From Synergistales bacterium (GTDB lineage Bacteria > Synergistota > Synergistia > Synergistales > JAFGMB01): a stretch of DNA of 64,000 bases. This document shows, one piece after another, positions 6,443 through 49,080 of the stretch (position 1 is its first letter; each line of letters begins with the position of its first letter). Under the pieces are notes generated by a model, which was not told the origin of the DNA, did no database searches, and was given only the letters and a program-made list of their open reading frames with translations. The stretch spans positions 96,001 through 160,000 of the forward strand of contig OY762654.1 in the NCBI GenBank assembly GCA_963666205.1. Direction: 5' to 3'. The position numbers and the translations under genes were made by a program.

Positions 6443-6537
6443 TGAAGGACCACCTTGATATTAGTTGTAAGTTTCCAACATGATTATATAGTATAGTTGA
6501 CCTGGATATAAAAGAAATGATCGGAGGTGTTTTCTTT

Positions 6538-6945
6538 TTGGAAAAACTGGTTCGATTTGGAGTTGCTGTACCTGAAAATCTCCTGGTTGAGTTCGATAAA
6601 TGGATCAAGAATAAGGGAATCCCCAATCGGTCCGAAGCTATTCGCCAGCTTATAAGGGAGTTTGTTGCAGAAGAACATTGGGATTGTGAAACAGGCACAG
6701 TATATGGAGCTATCACAATAACCTATGACCATCATGCCCATGATGCCATGGGGGGGCTGACAACTTTACAGCATGACTTTGGGGACATAATCAACTGCAG
6801 TACCCATGTTCACATTGATCATGACCACTGTCTTGAAGTGATAGTAGTAAACGGGAATGCAAAAAACATAAAGAAACTGGTCGACTCATTGTCATGCATG
6901 AGATGTGTGGAAACTGTTTCTCACAGGATAACTACGATCCTCTAG
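6538..6945 (+). CDS. nikR: Nickel-responsive transcriptional regulator NikR (TTG start after GGAGGT; ORF track starts at 6517)
   Basis: RHH domain RFGV.....L...FD....GIPNRSEAIR.LIRE; YDHH, LQH and THVHIDHDHCLE nickel-ligand motifs. Confidence 0.93.
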   Translation: MEKLVRFGVAVPENLLVEFDKWIKNKGIPNRSEAIRQLIREFVAEEHWDCETGTVYGAITITYDHHAHDAMGGLTTLQHDFGDIINCSTHVHIDHDHCLEVIVVNGNAKNIKKLVDSLSCMRCVETVSHRITTIL

Positions 6946-6955
6946 GAAGTGATAT

Positions 6956-6984
6956 AAAATAAGGGCAGCACACGGCTGCCCTTA
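6956..6984 (-). terminator. GC-rich hairpin with U-run on the minus strand; terminator for the Zn-ribbon gene, possibly also a SECIS element
   Basis: Minus strand TAAGGGCAGC-CGTGT-GCTGCCCTTA-TTTT. Confidence 0.75.
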
Positions 6985-6986
6985 AA

Positions 6987-7151
6987 CTAAATTCCTCATG
7001 AAGAACATGTATTCCTTTTCATTGATTCTCCTTCAAGGAGGAAGAGAATCTTGTTTTTGCATTCTGGACATTTCAAGTCCTTATCTTTCGAGGAAAGCTC
7101 AAATTCATGACCACATTCTGCACATCTGAAACGGCGAGTCTCTTCTGGCAT
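6987..7151 (-). CDS. Small zinc-ribbon protein (FmdB-like); 51 aa if TGA at 6996-6998 is stop, 54 aa if read as Sec
   Basis: MPEETRRFRCAECGHEFELSSKDKDLKCPECKNKILFLLEGESMKRNTCSS[TGA]GI[TAG]; two CxxC knuckles; strong RBS GAAAGGAG; below the ORF-track size cutoff. Confidence 0.85.
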
Positions 7152-7383
7152 CTAAACATCTCCTTTCGTCAAGCGAGAAAGTTGTCACTATTAATTATAG
7201 ATCACTATTTAATAAGTTACCAGATAGGTATTTCATAAAATAAAATGATTTGTTCAAAATGTTACCCTGACTCTAAAGTTTGTTAAAAAACATCCCAACC
7301 ATTCGTTAAAGGATAAAGCTTACGATGTCAAAGTAAGGGAAAACATATTCCTTCTTGAGAGTCTGACGGTCGTAAGACAATGG

Positions 7384-8613
7384 TTATAGTTCCAGCCTGG
7401 ACAGTGGCATAGTCATACACCTAGGGCCTCCCCTTCCCCTGCCCAGTTCTGATCCTCTGATCTCAAATACATTCACTCCTGCATCCCTGAGAGACCGGTT
7501 GGTTACAACATTCCTGCTATAGGTAATGACTTGCCGGGGAGCAACTGCAAATACGTTTGCTCCATCGTTCCATTGATCTCTTGCAGCTTGTACCGGATCA
7601 CCCCCACCTGTTTCTATAAAATTAATTTTTTCGAGGCGAAGGTTCTTTAAAAGGCATCTCTGCAGATCTTTGTGTTGAAACAGTCCAGTCAGTTTGCCTT
7701 CAGGGTCGTAATCCAACTGCCATACTTCCAGTAAATCATAAATTCCTTGATAAATTGTAAAGGAATCATGGTCGATCATAGTAAATACGGTGTCAAGATG
7801 CATGGCAGACCTTGTTTTGGGAATATCCACGGCTATGATTCTCTGACATGCTCCGCACCTGCTCAATTTAGTTCCAAGAGCCTGTATAGCTGAAGAAGAG
7901 GTCCTTTGACTTATACCTATAGCTATAATATCCGGGGAAAGAATAAGAATGTCTCCTCCTTCGACAGATCCGCAGCGTTTGTCTTCTTCAGCATTGCCGA
8001 AGATAACTTCAAGATCTGAAAGTTCAGGATGATGCTGAAATATATATTTCCCATAAAGCGACTCTCTCATTCTTGCAGGGAAATTCATGTTGCTTATAAT
8101 AACCTTGTTTCCTACAACAACATATGGATCACGCTGGAAATATAAATTGGGAAGCGGTGAGATCACAAAATCATCATCATTCATAATACTGATAGAAAGA
8201 CTTTTAATGGTATTGGTGTATTTCAGTAATTCCCCCCTGGTAATCCCCGAAAACAGGATTTCTATTAATGAAGCTATATCAATCCGATGAAGGGTATCTT
8301 CCAATTCATTTCTGAGAGTGACTTCAAGCACCTCATTCTTTAGAACGTCCTGGATTAATGAGAATCGTACCTCTTCCATCTTCAGGATATCTCCCAGGAG
8401 ATTCTTCAGATATGTTACTTCTGTACCACAGTTTCTAAGAGTTTCTACAAATGAGTCGTGTTCCTTCTGTGCTTCTTCAACCCATAAAAGATCATCAAAA
8501 AGAAAGAGATCCTTGTTTGCAACTGTAAGTCTGTCCAGTTCTTTTCCAGGTCTATGGAGCATCACATTTTTCAAAGGTCCTATTTCTGAAGTAATACCAT
8601 GTTTCTTTTTCAA
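7384..8613 (-). CDS. arcA: Arginine deiminase
   Basis: [64 protein letters not shown]. Confidence 0.96.
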
Positions 8614-8650
8614 TTCATCTCAACCTCTCTTTATGTGATGAAAATAATCT

Positions 8651-8675
8651 TATATTGAGTGCTATGCTCAATATA
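8651..8675. promoter_or_regulatory. Perfect inverted repeat upstream of arcA, candidate operator
   Basis: TATATTGAG-N7-CTCAATATA, about 40 bp upstream of the arcA start. Confidence 0.45.
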
Positions 8676-8809
8676 TGGAAAAAATCAAATCCAGGTGTTT
8701 AGTGGAATAAAACTGGAGAATCTTTTTTTAAATCTATTTCCGCATATAATGGGATGTTGAAAAGCGCGAGTCATGGCTCTTCAGTATAAGAGACCATAAC
8801 TTGGAATTA

Positions 8810-9667
8810 TCATGCATTATACTCTTCGATAATCTCCTGAAGAAATACAGGAAGGGTAAAACAGTGTCTATGTATAGCTTCTGAATAATATTTCAAGCCG
8901 GCAGGTGGAGTTCTCTGTGGGATTTGAGGGTCAATGCCCTTGCCTCCTATCGTGTATGTCCACATGCCAGTGGGGTAAGTAGGCATAGCTCCCCAACAAA
9001 GGTAAACATCTTTAAATGTTTTTTTCATTTCCAGATATGCCTGTTTCATCAATCTGGGTTCTGCAAAAGGTGATTCAGTCTGAGCAACAAGAAGACCCAT
9101 TTTTTTCAATGACTTGAAAACATCGGAATAGAAGCTTGACTGGAAAAGACCTGCCGCAAAATCTACTGGGTCAGTACTGTCTACTATAATTATGTCAAAC
9201 TGATTTTCATGATTGGTTATAAATTCCATGGCATCCATGGGCAAAATCTCTGCTTTTGGATGATTAAGGCCGCAACTGACATCGGGAAAGAAATCTCTTG
9301 AAGCCTGGATAACTTCCTTATCGATATCCACAAGGGTAACCTTGTCCAGGATATCGTATTTGACAATTTCCCTTAAGATTCCACCATCTCCACCACCTAC
9401 AATCAGTACTCTCGAGGGTTCTGGGTGAGAACACATTGCAACGTGAGCCATCATTTCGTGGTAGCAGAACTCATCTTTTTCAGTTATCTGAATTGCACCA
9501 TCAAGCACCATTATCCTGCCATATTCTTCAGTGTCTGCCACCATTATGTGTTGATATTCTGTATCTTTGTTCAGAAGGATGTCCGAGATCCTCAGATCAA
9601 GTTTCATGTTTTCTGTCTGGCATTCAGTAAACCAGAGATCCGTGATTCTTCTTCCAATTACTTCCAT
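8810..9667 (-). CDS. speE: Polyamine aminopropyltransferase (spermidine synthase)
   Basis: LWFTE, LDGAIQ.TE.DEF.YHEM, VLIVGGGDGG..RE, IIVDSTDP, PTYP.G.W. Confidence 0.96.
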   Translation of the reverse strand: MEVIGRRITDLWFTECQTENMKLDLRISDILLNKDTEYQHIMVADTEEYGRIMVLDGAIQITEKDEFCYHEMMAHVAMCSHPEPSRVLIVGGGDGGILREIVKYDILDKVTLVDIDKEVIQASRDFFPDVSCGLNHPKAEILPMDAMEFITNHENQFDIIIVDSTDPVDFAAGLFQSSFYSDVFKSLKKMGLLVAQTESPFAEPRLMKQAYLEMKKTFKDVYLCWGAMPTYPTGMWTYTIGGKGIDPQIPQRTPPAGLKYYSEAIHRHCFTLPVFLQEIIEEYNA

Positions 9668-10149
9668 CGATATCCCCTACTTTCTGAAAATAAAAGACAG
9701 GTTGCTATAACAGAGCCACATAAGCTTACCCGATGTTCAATGCCTTTGATCCGGATGTCTTGAAGTTGGAGTCTGAGTTCAGTAAATCTATCCTGTATTA
9801 TTGACGCTACAATGACAGTAACTTCCTGAACGCTAGCGAGATCTGAATGACCTACGATGACTCCATTTTCCATGGGATCATATGGAATACCTACTCCTAT
9901 TACAGACGATATAAGCTGGCCGGGATGCTCACTTGTAAAAACACAAGATACGCCTGATACTATGGATCCCTTCGACAATAAACCAGGACGAGATGTATAT
10001 TTGCACTCGGGAGGCAACTCTCTTTGAACTTCAATATTATTTATATTGTTCAAGCCGGCATCGCAAAAAGCGGAATTCTTGGAGAGAACTTCATCTGAAC
10101 CCTCTCCTCTACCTGTTAACAAAGTATATTTTTCTGGAATCTGGATCAT
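9658..10149 (-). CDS. Pyruvoyl-dependent arginine decarboxylase-like protein lacking the Ser-Ser cleavage site
   Basis: PdaD-like layout (P.KY.L..G.GEG, A..DAG..N.N...V...LPP, G.LIS..IG.GIP......GVI, EH.V..CG..IA) and coupling to speE; the expected VSS(I/V)LP reads VQRELP. Confidence 0.75.
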   Translation of the reverse strand: MIQIPEKYTLLTGRGEGSDEVLSKNSAFCDAGLNNINNIEVQRELPPECKYTSRPGLLSKGSIVSGVSCVFTSEHPGQLISSVIGVGIPYDPMENGVIVGHSDLASVQEVTVIVASIIQDRFTELRLQLQDIRIKGIEHRVSLCGSVIATCLLFSESRGYRWK

Positions 10150-21063: not shown

Positions 21064-22158
21064 TTATTTTGTTCCGTAGAGACGGTCTCCTGCATCTCCA
21101 AGTCCTGGAACGATGTATGCATGGTCATTAAGATGATCATCCAGAGCGGCTATGAAGATATCGACATCAGGATGCTCAGAATGGACTCTTGCTACTCCTT
21201 CTGGTGCCCCTATCAGACAGACAAGGGAAATCTTTTTCGCACCCTTTCTTTTAATCAAGGATATGGCAGCAGAGGCAGATCCACCTGTTGCAAGCATGGG
21301 ATCGATAACCAGAATGTCTCTTTCTTCAATGTCCCCGGGAAGTTTACAATAATATTCAACAGGTTCAAAAGTCTGTGGATCGCGATATAATCCAATATGA
21401 CCTACCTTAGCATTCGGAATAAGCTGGAGAATACCGTCAACCATTCCCAGACCGGCCCTGAGAACTGGTACAATTGCTAACTTCTTGCCTGCAAGAGTGT
21501 ATGCCTCTGTCTTGGCTACAGGTGTTTCTACAGTTGTTTTTTCCAGAGGAAGATCTCTTGTAATTTCATAGACCATAAGACCGGCTATTTCCTGTACAAG
21601 TTCCCGGAATTCCTTTACTGAAGTGTTTTTATCCCTGATCATCGTAACTTTATGTTGTATAAGTGGATGATTAAAGATAACAGTTTTAGCATTTCTTTCA
21701 GAATCTGTCCGGCACATGCGCTTTTCTTCATTTGTGATCTTTTCGAATCTTCTTAAATGACGATTACCTTCAAAATCAGTATTCAGCCATGTGCTAACTA
21801 TTTCCATTGCAGCTGGTTCAGAGAGAAGTCTTGCGCCCAGTGTCAGGATATTTGCATTATTGTGGGTTCGACTTAACCGGGCAGTCTCCAGATCATGAAC
21901 TACAGCCGCATAGGCTCCAGGTACTTTGTTAGCAGCTATGGACATACCGATACCAGTACCGCAAACAAGTATACCTTTATCAGCTTTCTTATCAGCTACG
22001 AAGTTTGCCACAAGAATCGCATAATCTGGATAATCACAGCTTGTTTCCTTACTATCTGTTCCCATGTCAACAACCTCATGACCGTTCTGTACCAGATAGT
22101 CTTTTAATGACTCTTTTAAAGTAAATCCTGCATGATCTGAACCCAAGGCAATCAGCAT
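21064..22158 (-). CDS. rpiB-upp: Ribose-5-phosphate isomerase B fused to uracil phosphoribosyltransferase
   Basis: N-terminal [38 protein letters not shown]-terminal [50 protein letters not shown] in one frame. Confidence 0.95.
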
Positions 22159-22210
22159 ATGGTCAACCTCCCCGTTATTCCTTATAAATTGATTGGATGA
22201 TTTTTCTCAA

Positions 22211-22244
22211 CAGAAAGGGTACAGGAAAACCCCGTACCCCTCTG
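22211..22244 (-). terminator. Probable terminator after mmdB
   Basis: Minus strand CAGAGGGGTACGGGG-TTTT-CCTGTACCCTTTCTG hairpin. Confidence 0.6.
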
Positions 22245-22298
22245 ACGAGACATTATCAATATAAGTATAACCCTAAATGTATAGTATAGGATTTCACT

Positions 22299-23417
22299 TC
22301 AGCTCAACAGAGTAAGCATAACCCCGGCAGCGACGGCAGTACCGATTACTCCGGCCACATTCGGACCCATGGCATGCATGAGGAGGAAATTGCTGGGGTT
22401 CTCCTGCTGGCATATTCTCTGGACCACCCTGGCGGCCATGGGGACGGCACTCACTCCTGCCGCTCCTATCATGGGATTTATCTTTCCCCCGCTTATTATC
22501 TTCATAAGCTGGCCGAAGAGGGTTCCTCCGGCGGTGCTGAAGATGAAGGCCACCAGTCCCAGAAGTATTATCTTCAGAGTTCCCAGGGTCAGGAAATATT
22601 CGGCACTCATTGTGGCTCCTACCGACAGTCCGAGGAAGATGGTGGTGGCATTGAGTATCTCGTTCTGGGCCGCCTGGTTGAGCCTTTCCGTAACTCCGCA
22701 TTCCCGGAGAAGGTTGCCGAACATGAGCACTCCTATGAGGGGTACACTTGCCGGCAGGATAAGGCCGGCTGCTATGGTGCATATGACGGGAAAGAGCACT
22801 CTCTCAAGCTTGCTAACAGGACGGAGATTGTCCATCCTTATGGCACGGTCCTCCTTCGTGGTAAGCATCCTTATCACGGGCGGCTGAATGAGGGGCACCA
22901 GGGCCATGTAGCTGTAGGCCGCCACCGCTACGGCTCCCAGTATCTGGGGTGCCAGCTTGATGGTCAGGTATATGCTCGTGGGACCGTCCGCTCCTCCTAT
23001 GATGGCTATGGAGGCTGCTTCCTTCACGCTGAAACCGAGCATGAGCGCTCCGAAGAGGGCTATGAATACTCCCAGCTGCGCCGCCGCTCCAAGAAGAAAG
23101 GTTACGGGGTTGGCCAGAAGGGGCGCAAAGTCCGTCAGCGCTCCCACTCCCATGAAGATTATTACGGGATATATCTCGTGCTGGGTTCCGAAAAATATGT
23201 AATACAGAAATCCGCCTTCGTCCATTATCCCCGACAGAGGCAGGTTAACAAGGAGGCATCCGAAGGCTATGGGTACGAGCAGAAGGGGCTCGAATCCCTT
23301 CCTTATGGCCAGGTAGAGCATGACGAAGGCCACAAGGAGCATGGTGATGTTACCTCCACTTATGCCGGCAAAGCCGGATTCGTTCATTATCTTGACAAGT
23401 GCTTCAAAATATACCAT
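22299..23417 (-). CDS. mmdB: Na+-translocating decarboxylase beta subunit
   Basis: FEPLLLVPI.FG, IF.GVGA.TDF, GAAAQ.G, IIGGADGPT, AVAAYSYMALVP.IQPP, GVSAVPMAARV, HAMGPNVAGVIG. Confidence 0.95.
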   Translation of the reverse strand: MVYFEALVKIMNESGFAGISGGNITMLLVAFVMLYLAIRKGFEPLLLVPIAFGCLLVNLPLSGIMDEGGFLYYIFFGTQHEIYPVIIFMGVGALTDFAPLLANPVTFLLGAAAQLGVFIALFGALMLGFSVKEAASIAIIGGADGPTSIYLTIKLAPQILGAVAVAAYSYMALVPLIQPPVIRMLTTKEDRAIRMDNLRPVSKLERVLFPVICTIAAGLILPASVPLIGVLMFGNLLRECGVTERLNQAAQNEILNATTIFLGLSVGATMSAEYFLTLGTLKIILLGLVAFIFSTAGGTLFGQLMKIISGGKINPMIGAAGVSAVPMAARVVQRICQQENPSNFLLMHAMGPNVAGVIGTAVAAGVMLTLLS

Positions 23418-23488
23418 AGGGGCGTTTCTCCCTCCTTTGTCCTCTTTCCTGTTTCCCAGTCCGGTAACTGGTTAAAGGGGAGGGACTT

Positions 23489-23896
23489 CTAGCCTATCAC
23501 TAACAGAAGGTCTCCGGTGTTTACGGAGTCACCGTCATGTGCCCTTACTTCCTTCACTGTGCCGCCGGCGGGAGCAAGTATCTCGTTCTCCATCTTCATG
23601 GCTTCCAGAACCAGAAGAAGATCCCCTGCGTTCACCGCTGCTCCACTCTGGACAACCACCCTCAGTACCTTGCCGGGCATGGGGGCGGATATCTCCGTTC
23701 CCTCTACGGGGCCTGCCGGTGCCGGCGCTGCTGCTGGTTTGGGGGCAGGAGATGCTGCCGGCGCCGCTGCTGGTGCCGCTACTGCTGCCGTAACTGGTGC
23801 TGGGCTCGATGATGCGGGTGCACTGCTGCCTCCGAGTTCTTCCACTTCTACTTCGTAACTCGTTCCATCTACGGTCACTCTGTATTTCTTTGCCAT
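23489..23896 (-). CDS. mmdC: Biotin carrier (gamma) subunit of methylmalonyl-CoA decarboxylase
   Basis: KY.VTV.G..YEVEVEE, Ala/Pro linker, APMPG, LEAMKMENEI. Confidence 0.93.
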   Translation of the reverse strand: MAKKYRVTVDGTSYEVEVEELGGSSAPASSSPAPVTAAVAAPAAAPAASPAPKPAAAPAPAGPVEGTEISAPMPGKVLRVVVQSGAAVNAGDLLLVLEAMKMENEILAPAGGTVKEVRAHDGDSVNTGDLLLVIG

Positions 23897-48430: not shown

Positions 48431-48506
48431 TGGTGGGTCATACAGGAATCGAACCTGTAACCCCCTGATTAAGAGTCAGGTGCTCTGCCAATTGAGCTAA
48501 TGACCC
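48431..48506 (-). tRNA. tRNA-Lys(CTT)
   Basis: GGGTCATTAGCTCAATTGG...CCTGA-CT-CTT-AA-TCAGG...GTTCGATTC...CCA. Confidence 0.97.
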
Positions 48507-48524
48507 ATTATGTACTTATTCTTG

Positions 48525-48601
48525 TGGCGCGCCCGGCAGGATTCGAACCCGCGACCCTCGGCTCCGAAGGCCGATGCTCTATCCAGCTGAGCTACAGGCG
48601 C
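48525..48601 (-). tRNA. tRNA-Arg(TCG)
   Basis: GCGCCTGTAGCTCAGCTGGATAGAGC-A-TCGGC-CT-TCG-GA-GCCGA...CCA. Confidence 0.96.
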
Positions 48602-48615
48602 TCATCAGATGAAGT

Positions 48616-48693
48616 TGGGGTGAGTGAGGGGACTTGAACCCCCAACCCCTGGAACCACAATCCAGTGCTCTGACCAGTTGAGCTACACCCACC
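48616..48693 (-). tRNA. tRNA-His(GTG) with encoded G-1
   Basis: CTGGA-TT-GTG-GT-TCCAG anticodon arm; C73 discriminator then CCA. Confidence 0.96.
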
Positions 48694-48708
48694 GTAAATC
48701 TGGAATAA

Positions 48709-48785
48709 TGGCGCGCCCGGCAGGATTCGAACCCGCGACCCTCGGCTTAGAAGGCCGATGCTCTATCCGGCTGAGCTACAGGCGC
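48709..48785 (-). tRNA. tRNA-Arg(TCT)
   Basis: TCGGC-CT-TCT-AA-GCCGA anticodon arm; encoded CCA. Confidence 0.96.
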
Positions 48786-48795
48786 CCTTTAAAAA

Positions 48796-48870
48796 TGGAG
48801 CGGAAAACGGGACTCGAACCCGCAACCCCCAGCTTGGAAGGCTAGTGCTCTACCATTGAGCTATTTCCGC
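48796..48870 (-). tRNA. tRNA-Gly(TCC)
   Basis: GCGGAAATAGCTCAATGG...CTAGC-CT-TCC-AA-GCTGG...TCCA. Confidence 0.96.
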
Positions 48871-48886
48871 TTTTTTAACTTTAAAA

Positions 48887-48964
48887 TGGTCGGGGCGAAA
48901 GGATTCGAACCTTCGACCCCCTGCTCCCAAAGCAGGTGCGCTAACCAGACTGCGCTACGCCCCG
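48887..48964 (-). tRNA. tRNA-Pro(TGG)
   Basis: CGGGGCGTAGCGCAG...CCTGC-TT-TGG-GA-GCAGG...ACCA. Confidence 0.96.
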
Positions 48965-49005
48965 ATATTCTATAAGACTTTCCAATAATTCGCAAGTACT
49001 ATTTC

Positions 49006-49080
49006 TGGTGGAGCTGGGGGGATTTGAACCCCCGGCCTCTTCCGTGCGAAGGAAGCGCGCTCCCCCTGCGCTACAGCCCC
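49006..49080 (-). tRNA. tRNA-Ala(CGC)
   Basis: GGGGCTG acceptor with G3:U70; CTTCC-TT-CGC-AC-GGAAG; encoded CCA. Confidence 0.95.

Follow-up and report, generated by a model that had tools for sequence, protein, structure and literature searches.

The locus

The subject of this report is a small gene on the minus strand of a 64,000-nucleotide stretch of Synergistales DNA (contig OY762654.1), hereafter referred to as the window, in which an in-frame TGA codon very probably specifies selenocysteine (Sec, U). All coordinates refer to the whole 64-kb window, in which the candidate selenoprotein gene runs from 7151 to 6990; the initial annotation had given no strand. Judged from the sequence and from its relatives, the product would be a 54-residue selenoprotein with a four-cysteine zinc ribbon, a basic and probably disordered linker, and a C-terminus of sequence C-S-S-U-G-I. 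The features of the gene and of the region immediately downstream are as follows.

7160-7164, minus strand: Shine-Dalgarno sequence AGGAG, with eight nucleotides between GGAG and ATG
6990-7151, minus strand: coding sequence of the proposed 54-residue selenoprotein, with ATG at 7151, zinc ribbon C10xxC13 and C28xxC31, β-strand ILFLLEG, basic linker and tail C49-S-S-U52-G-I
6996-6998, minus strand: TGA, the proposed Sec codon (residue 52)
6987-6989, minus strand: TAG, the proposed true stop
6960-6984, minus strand: hairpin UAAGGGCAGC/CGUGU/GCUGCCCUUA, 10 base pairs, -16.5 kcal/mol, the proposed selenocysteine insertion sequence (SECIS) element, wholly in the 3' untranslated region, and also resembling an intrinsic terminator
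6950-6959, minus strand: U-rich tail UUUUAUAUCA after the hairpin, seen in the sequence and in the terminator scan

Up to the TGA the open reading frame (ORF) comprises 51 codons and encodes MPEETRRFRCAECGHEFELSSKDKDLKCPECKNKILFLLEGESMKRNTCSS. The strong ribosome-binding site and the two CxxC knuckles that had been described for it in the initial annotation are indeed there, and the in-frame end of the gene, TGT TCT TCA TGA GGA ATT TAG, places the TGA at the second Cys position of a CxxC motif, followed by Gly, Ile and a stop, exactly as had been claimed. The description of the gene as unannotated is only partly correct: it is mis-terminated, but it is not wholly unseen, since the 51-residue shortened form is already a predicted protein in a public protein collection.

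Conservation beyond the TGA codon

A scan of one genome per species, with a five-sequence alignment as the query, yielded 79 related loci. The counts given below cover the window and the best 47 of these loci (48 sequences); the other 32 of the 79 (L048-L079), which are weak matches to the zinc ribbon only and come from other phyla, were left out. This set includes 30 sequences (the window and 29 of the 47 loci) in which the ORF runs into a TGA that is followed by exactly two sense codons and then a second stop. These are referred to as the Sec-type sequences, and they share the architecture of the window protein. By chance, the next stop would be expected to follow after exactly two sense codons ∼5% of the time.

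Immediately after the TGA, the Sec-type tails have GGA in nine cases, GGG in nine, GGC in seven, GGT in four, and GCA in one, and the second codon always specifies Ile, Val, Gly, or Ala. Eight different hexamers are observed among the 12 Gly-Ile tails and eight among the eight Gly-Val tails, with the differences within each type being synonymous. Such a drift in the third positions while the residues stay the same is the signature of a translated sequence after the TGA. The second stop, which is TGA in 19 sequences, TAA in six, and TAG in five, always lies six nucleotides after the first TGA. A DNA alignment reveals that conservation ends at this second stop and that the spacer beyond it varies in length.

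The tails fall into three types. The first, C-[SP]-S-U-G-[IV], is found in the window and in loci L001-L004. The second, CxxCxxxxCS[TG]-U-[GA]-x, occurs in 18 loci, and the third, C-A-[PAS]-[SA]-G-U-G-I together with the variant CLPSGST-U-G-I, in seven. Among protein sequences, a word-indexed search returned a single close match, P0002, which is 82% identical, contains 51 residues, and ends in NTCSG, whereas an exhaustive search returned small relatives with Cys/Ser/Gly tails.

Cysteine is the usual counterpart of Sec. In the alignment of the family (A4) the Sec column holds Cys in five of the six Cys-type rows. The protein at L046, which is the same as P0165 and is attributed in its record to a Synergistetes bacterium, has the ending CSTCSTGTCSTCGI (final residues CSTCGI); it is built like the second tail type, except that Cys takes the place of U. 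P0058, P0161, and P0163 end in SCPLCNI, with the first of these annotated as Thermosynergistes. Four further loci, L016, L025, L026, and L031, end in CSSGCSCCH, and because they share the gene order of the Sec forms, with an ornithine carbamoyltransferase (OTCase) gene upstream and nikR downstream, they are regarded as orthologues. L028 has a Cys-rich tail ending in CSGCGH and also an OTCase gene upstream. The proteins at L044 and L045, from metagenome-assembled genomes (MAGs) of a Mahella sp. and a member of the Clostridiales, respectively, are longer and have a different ending. According to the initial annotation, homologues would be informative if they showed a conserved TGA with a short tail or a Cys aligned to the TGA. 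Both were observed, the former in the 30 Sec-type sequences and the latter in other homologues.

A Cys-rich paralogue family that lacks Sec was also encountered (L027, L032-L034, L037, L039, L041-L043, and L047). Its members start with MHKY[RK]CASCG and have tails such as CSCKGGNCSSCAGQCG. In L042 and L043 a tsaD-like reading frame comes directly after the paralogue, which in L043 is positioned two genes after Hsp33. The Cys-type homologue at L046 directly follows Hsp33.

The hairpin downstream of the TGA codon

The hairpin in the window consists of 10 contiguous pairs and starts 12 nucleotides after the TGA. Its CGUGU loop, with G at the second position, starts 21 nucleotides after the UGA, and in these respects the hairpin is just as the initial annotation had portrayed it. 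A 71-nucleotide stretch folds at -23 kcal/mol, with a z-score of -3.9 relative to shuffled sequences. The bacterial SECIS model set out in the legend to Fig. 2 of a recent review (PMC13188914) specifies a loop of 3-9 nucleotides, a stem of 4-16 base pairs, a G in the first two loop positions, a UGA-to-loop distance of 16-37 nucleotides, and a folding energy of -7.5 kcal/mol or lower. The test employed here is a re-implementation of that model with contiguous stems rather than bSECISearch itself. A SECIS prediction had been called for in the initial annotation; the hairpin of the window falls within the published constraints, and the model was passed by 28 of the 30 Sec-type sequences as opposed to 1 of the 18 others. 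Within the window, hairpins conforming to the model were found at none of the 19 TGA-terminated long ORFs, at 1 of 52 gene ends, which is that of nikR and represents the same hairpin approached from the other side, and after 37 of 2522 TGA triplets (1.5%).

The loops of the Sec-type hairpins (CGUGU, GUU, GUG, GGC, GUC, GGU, AGUA, AGUU, and GGUC) always carry G-U or G-G early. In an alignment that includes badly aligned outliers, 85.8% of the cells in the helix are paired, eight of the nine pairs change on both sides, and the observed covariation score is reached by 0 of 500 shuffles. Covariation alone would fit a terminator too. The window and 17 loci have an identical 7-bp core, GGGCAGC/GCUGCCC, although the proteins are only ∼45-55% identical, and the motif GGGCAGC-N3-7-GCTGCCC occurs once in the window with none expected from shuffled sequences.

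In the window the hairpin is a G+C-rich stem-loop followed by a U tract, as is characteristic of an intrinsic terminator. The dual role of SECIS element and terminator that was envisaged in the initial annotation is accepted for this genome, given that the hairpin passes both the SECIS model and the terminator scan. Note, however, that 6 of the 28 passing hairpins (L003, L004, L017, L030, L035, and L036) have three or fewer U residues in the nine nucleotides after the stem while keeping the position and the loop type. The terminator role is thus not general.

Gene neighborhood

The genes and the promoter-like sequence flanking the candidate gene are listed below.

6517-6945, plus strand: nikR, the convergent neighbor (NikR_C 89.6 bits; NF002169 131 bits), whose stop lies 14 nucleotides from the foot of the hairpin
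7259-7286, minus strand: weak sigma-70-like promoter match TTAACA-16-TAACAT, ∼108 nucleotides upstream of the start codon, agreeing at 9 of 12 consensus positions, a match to the consensus alone that carries no evidence of function
7384-8613, minus strand: arcA, encoding arginine deiminase, 232 nucleotides upstream of the small gene and in the same orientation

The hairpin sits within the 41-nucleotide spacer that separates the TAG of the small gene from the stop of nikR. A convergent nikR is positioned 34-91 nucleotides from the TGA in 28 of the 29 Sec-type loci, which belong to several families of the Synergistota, and also in the four orthologues with Cys. In the window and these Sec-type loci, every other gene of the block is encoded on the strand opposite to that of nikR. 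The OTCase gene is located directly upstream and on the same strand in 23 of the 29 Sec-type relatives, and is preceded by either arcA or ispG. In the window and in L001, OTCase is missing and arcA is found upstream of the small gene. The stretch comprising dxr, rseP, and ispG through nikR, a C-N hydrolase gene, nadE, yebC, and ruvCAB constitutes a conserved housekeeping block, and for that reason the adjacency of nikR is treated as a lead rather than as evidence for a function in nickel metabolism.

In the window, the genes upstream of the candidate form an arginine/polyamine row (7384-10149, minus strand) encoding a pyruvoyl-dependent arginine decarboxylase, a spermidine synthase, and the arginine deiminase.

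Lineage

L001, which derives from a MAG of Acetomicrobium hydrogeniformans, is collinear with the window and 91.1% identical to it over 8.2 kb. On this basis the window is assigned to a sister species within Acetomicrobium, phylum Synergistota. Peng et al. (2016, PMC5029168) give 13 of 14 Synergistetes genomes as Sec users and score Anaerobaculum (now Acetomicrobium) hydrogeniformans and mobile as SelD+ and Sec+, the known selenoproteins numbering 10 and 8, respectively. The BSepDB paper likewise shows a Sec-containing SelD from Acetomicrobium mobile. These literature data support the Sec trait at the level of the genus.

Proposed decoding of the TGA and alternative explanations

Taken together, the conserved TGA with its two-codon tail, the Cys/Sec pairing, and the fit to the SECIS model strongly support the proposal of a candidate selenoprotein made in the initial annotation, and on these grounds we infer that the TGA in all likelihood encodes Sec. 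From the anatomy of the locus, the UGA at 6998-6996 would be decoded by the SelB/tRNA-Sec system, with SelB tethered to the hairpin at 6984-6960. Given that the hairpin lies entirely beyond the presumed real stop, UAG, the SECIS would be an element of the 3' untranslated region, and in this genome the hairpin probably terminates transcription as well. The first UGA would be recoded and the second stop would not, even in those relatives where the second stop is itself UGA. Indeed, the second stop is nine nucleotides closer to the loop, at a distance below the 16-nucleotide minimum of the model, which would fit with the first UGA alone being recoded. Under a shortage of selenium, the expected product would be a 51-residue form with CSS at its end.

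Several observations weigh against a selenoprotein. The annotation of the 58 ORFs of the 64-kb window, together with tRNA and Rfam scans, revealed no selA, selB, selC, selD, tRNA-Sec, or other selenoprotein gene, and there is no Sec machinery near the relatives and no tRNA-Sec in the 47 loci. The 30 Sec-type sequences are mutually related, and their agreement therefore does not amount to 30 independent events. The strict hairpin test is failed by L021 and L029, whose hairpins are weaker (loops GGUCU and CGUGU, at a distance of 17-18 nucleotides). The terminator scan calls the hairpin of the window, with 10 pairs and the tail TTTTATATCA, such that it is textbook terminator-like, and from the window alone a SECIS and a terminator cannot be separated. 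No Rfam family, the SECIS families included, matches the region even at E-values up to 10. As regards the function of the protein, the fold and family searches described below give generic zinc-ribbon matches only. Finally, in the available parts of the deep-Sep lists, no such protein appears for Aminobacterium sp. MB27-C1 (supplement 1, part 2) or for Cloacibacillus porcorum; it was either missed by that method or rejected.

One alternative is a selenium-dependent switch, in which a 51-residue form with Cys only and a 54-residue form with Cys and Sec would both be made and both matter, their ratio reporting on the selenium supply, or in which SelB bound to the hairpin would modulate termination or read-through into nikR antisense. 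Recoding of UGA in bacteria competes with release factor 2 (RF2), and a shortened product is thus to be expected. In addition, the SECIS and the terminator are one and the same hairpin in the window, and that hairpin occupies a convergent spacer of only 34-91 nucleotides that is common with nikR in nearly all of the relatives. There is, however, no evidence for a functional or regulated shortened form, the six relatives with U-poor sequences after the hairpin indicate that the dual role is not general, and the proximity of nikR may merely reflect the housekeeping block running from ispG to nikR, the C-N hydrolase gene, nadE, and yebC. A switch of this kind is accordingly regarded as doubtful.

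Less probable still, and by a good measure unlikely, is an ordinary gene end, with the TGA being the real stop of a 51-residue protein and the hairpin an intrinsic terminator shared by two convergent genes. It draws on the call of the terminator scan and the lack of Sec machinery in the window, on the 21 of 58 long ORFs of the window that are stopped by TGA, and on the gene callers and public databases, which end the protein at this codon. The initial annotation had considered the hairpin to be equally well explained as a terminator only, and for the window taken alone that alternative stands. The relatives make it unlikely. It leaves unexplained why two sense codons and a stop follow the TGA in 30 of the 48 sequences with synonymous changes in the third positions, why Cys forms with the same C-x-x-C-G/N-I ending exist, why hairpins with U-poor tails keep their loop type and spacing, and why the sequence of the stem is conserved across families.

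It is also conceivable, with a very low probability, that the tail belongs to the precursor of a modified peptide resembling the ribosomally synthesized and post-translationally modified peptides (RiPPs). For the low-complexity tails of FmdB-family proteins, the description of TIGR02605 is said to contain a RiPP-like suggestion, and tails rich in Cys, Gly, and Ser are found among the relatives, such as CGGCSGGSCSTUGG or that of the paralogue family mentioned above. Yet the conserved neighborhood (arcA, OTCase, ispG, and nikR) contains no maturation or export genes, and the tail of the window protein is short, with only Cys 49 and Sec 52. Read-through of the UGA without Sec, whether by near-cognate insertion of Trp or Cys or by reassignment of the codon, is the least credible of all, for although coding conservation past the TGA does not by itself name the inserted residue, TGA ends many genes of the window and also serves as second stop in 19 of the 30 Sec-type tails, such that the codon is not reassigned, the aligned column holds Cys, a SECIS-model hairpin lies at the right distance, and the phylum is known to use Sec.

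Fold and possible function

The AlphaFold model of the protein displays three β-strands (residues 5-10, 16-20, and 36-40) with a mean predicted local distance difference test (pLDDT) score of 75.5; for residues 41-54 the values are ∼50-57. No Pfam or NCBIfam model reaches its cut-off for the window protein. The best Pfam match is Zn_ribbon_8 (PF09723), at 29.9 bits versus a cut-off of 34.4, and the second-best NCBIfam match is FmdB (TIGR02605), at 28.3 bits versus 31.3. HypA (PF01155) scores 27.1 bits versus 28.9 and is matched in its zinc domain only (profile positions 67-106 of 112), whereas RpoP reaches 30.1 bits versus a cut-off of 89. The term FmdB-like, as employed in the initial annotation, thus describes a near match, with scores that fall just short of the FmdB and Zn_ribbon_8 cut-offs. 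A Foldseek search against the PDB gave no matches at E ≤ 0.001, and the comparisons with the PDB by Foldseek and by a profile search of its sequences pointed to generic zinc ribbons alone: RpoP/Rpb12, an MCM zinc finger, and the HypA zinc domain. In the ESM Atlas, unnamed clusters score ∼0.9, an uninformative result.

A profile search of the protein collection returned 44 relatives; each is either nameless or goes by "hypothetical protein" or "RNA polymerase subunit P/RPC12". Among the database sequences that were read, those of the Sec type end at the TGA. For the bacterial members P0038, P0163, and P0171, two sources give the name "DNA-directed RNA polymerase subunit P/RPC12". Bacteria are not known to have an RpoP, and these names are thus a mis-annotation arising from generic zinc-ribbon similarity.

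The protein would appear to be a Zn(Cys)4 scaffold extended by a basic, flexible linker and a Cys/Sec pair at the C-terminus. A possible role, proposed tentatively and with somewhat less than an even chance of being correct, is that Cys 49 and Sec 52 on the flexible tail form a selenylsulfide redox center or a pair of ligands for a soft metal, in effect a swinging arm docked via the zinc ribbon. This suggestion is built on analogy with CxxU proteins, with the GCUG tail of thioredoxin reductase, and with the remarks on UXX-star and SaoC proteins in the review cited above (PMC13188914). A more far-reaching scheme is quite unlikely to hold in its entirety. It would combine a phylum-wide family of the Synergistota missed by annotation, a SECIS in the 34-91-nucleotide spacer shared with nikR that recruits SelB, ends transcription, and sits at the 3' end of the nikR mRNA, and a Sec-tipped swinging arm that hands nickel, a soft metal, or reducing equivalents to a partner, thereby tying selenium to nickel or hydrogenase physiology.

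If confirmed, the assignment of Sec would bring a further selenoprotein family to a phylum that is known to be rich in them and would correct a systematic annotation error, by which the Sec-type relatives are cut at the TGA. The locus would also be a small, naturally occurring example of a bacterial SECIS located wholly downstream of the stop codon; reviews (PMC13188914) still place bacterial SECIS elements in coding regions. With SECIS and terminator overlapping, a gene of 54 codons would allow tests of how SelB binding, competition with RF2, and termination influence one another. Two-codon tails such as these may escape Sec-finding programs that depend on a long extension downstream of the UGA.

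Other features of the window

On the minus strand from 22.2 to 29.2 kb lies a complete methylmalonyl-CoA pathway cluster encoding the large and small subunits of the mutase, MeaB, and the alpha, gamma-like, biotin carrier, and beta components of the decarboxylase. It suggests a metabolism involving succinate and propionate. The 372-residue ORF at 22374-23492 on the plus strand, for which there is no family match, is a shadow ORF; the real gene is that of the beta subunit of the Na+-transporting decarboxylase (22299-23417, minus strand; OAD_beta 522.9 bits), which has an ordinary TGA end. An extended version of this last frame (22182-23417, minus strand), the one conspicuous candidate among the ORFs of the window obtained by reading TGA as U, was considered as a selenoprotein and rejected: it is a normal OAD_beta/MmdB gene with a Pfam match covering positions 2-349 of 349, up to residue 371, and it ends at the TGA.

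The 364-residue ORF at 21064-22158 on the minus strand appears to be an RpiB-Upp fusion, with ribose-5-phosphate isomerase B formed by residues 1-145 and uracil phosphoribosyltransferase by residues 158-364. Seven tRNA genes, for Lys, Arg, His, Arg, Gly, Pro, and Ala, none of them tRNA-Sec, are clustered at 48431-49080 on the minus strand.

Comparison with known systems

The closest parallel in layout is provided by the UXX-star families (Haft & Tolstoy 2025), which are tabled in the review PMC13188914, where their Sec residues are suggested to be possible metal ligands. They were set apart from the present family by means of the models NF041211 ("family 2") and NF041212 (a fusion) and the description in that review; "family 1" lies outside this comparison. 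Common to both is a Sec that is third from the C-terminus, as in U52-G53-I54-stop of the window protein and in its 29 relatives, and a U-X-X-stop layout leaves room for the SECIS only beyond the stop codon. The motif GxGU listed for UXX-star proteins, in contrast, is absent here, where C-x-x-U-G or C-x-x-x-G-U-G (CSSU, CSTU, SGU) is found instead on a zinc ribbon. No UXX-star model is among the NCBIfam matches, at E-values up to 10, for the window protein and seven read-through relatives; for the window protein and L040, this applies to the best 25 matches.

Sec-containing members of the FmdB family are indeed in print, as had been asserted in the initial annotation. They are reported from two reads of the Global Ocean Sampling (GOS) collection and predicted by Cys/Sec pairing and a SECIS. 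The GOS protein resembles the present one in being small, in its N-terminal CxxC...CxxC zinc ribbon, and in having a CxxU/UxxU motif. Its Sec, however, resides in the first zinc knuckle, with U at both positions in the published representative, whereas in the window protein that knuckle is C10xxC13, both knuckles contain only Cys, and the Sec would be located in the C-terminal tail. Two further NCBIfam entries, NF041197 (dual CXXC motif small (seleno)protein, deep-Sep DW) and NF049953 (zinc ribbon-containing (seleno)protein DG), also describe small or zinc-ribbon predicted selenoproteins of anaerobes. The former gives 14.3 bits for the window protein and 10.6-19.5 bits for its relatives versus a cut-off of 40, with only one knuckle matched, and the latter 13.5 bits versus a cut-off of 130; neither model attains its threshold in the seven read-through relatives. 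The HypA zinc domain and archaeal RpoP/Rpo12 have the same generic zinc-ribbon fold, and RpoP chains are the best whole-ribbon matches in the PDB, but the N-terminal nickel site of HypA is absent from the window protein and both fall below their cut-offs.

With regard to the literature covered on bacterial zinc-ribbon and UXX-star selenoproteins and on SECIS elements, to which Haft & Tolstoy 2025 and Haft & Gwadz 2023 did not belong, no description of this family was found. The accessible portion of the BSepDB supplement has no entry for "UXX", "ribbon", or "Acetomicrobium".

A final parallel is the mammalian thioredoxin reductase, which ends in -Gly-Cys-Sec-Gly. In both cases the Sec is near a Cys on a flexible C-terminal tail and is followed by Gly, and the UGA stands almost immediately before the stop with a short SECIS downstream. 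As described in PMC3834832, rat TrxR1 (Sec498-Gly499-end) was produced in Escherichia coli with a 17-nucleotide bacterial-type SECIS, and almost none was obtained without it. In that case, however, a large flavoenzyme with neighboring Cys and Sec residues was expressed from an engineered construct, whereas the window contains a natural bacterial gene for what is predicted to be a 54-residue zinc ribbon with a C-x-x-U tail. On the basis of these sequence comparisons, the gene and its relatives probably define a new candidate selenoprotein family, thus far confined to the Synergistota, in which the UXX-star layout is carried on a zinc ribbon.

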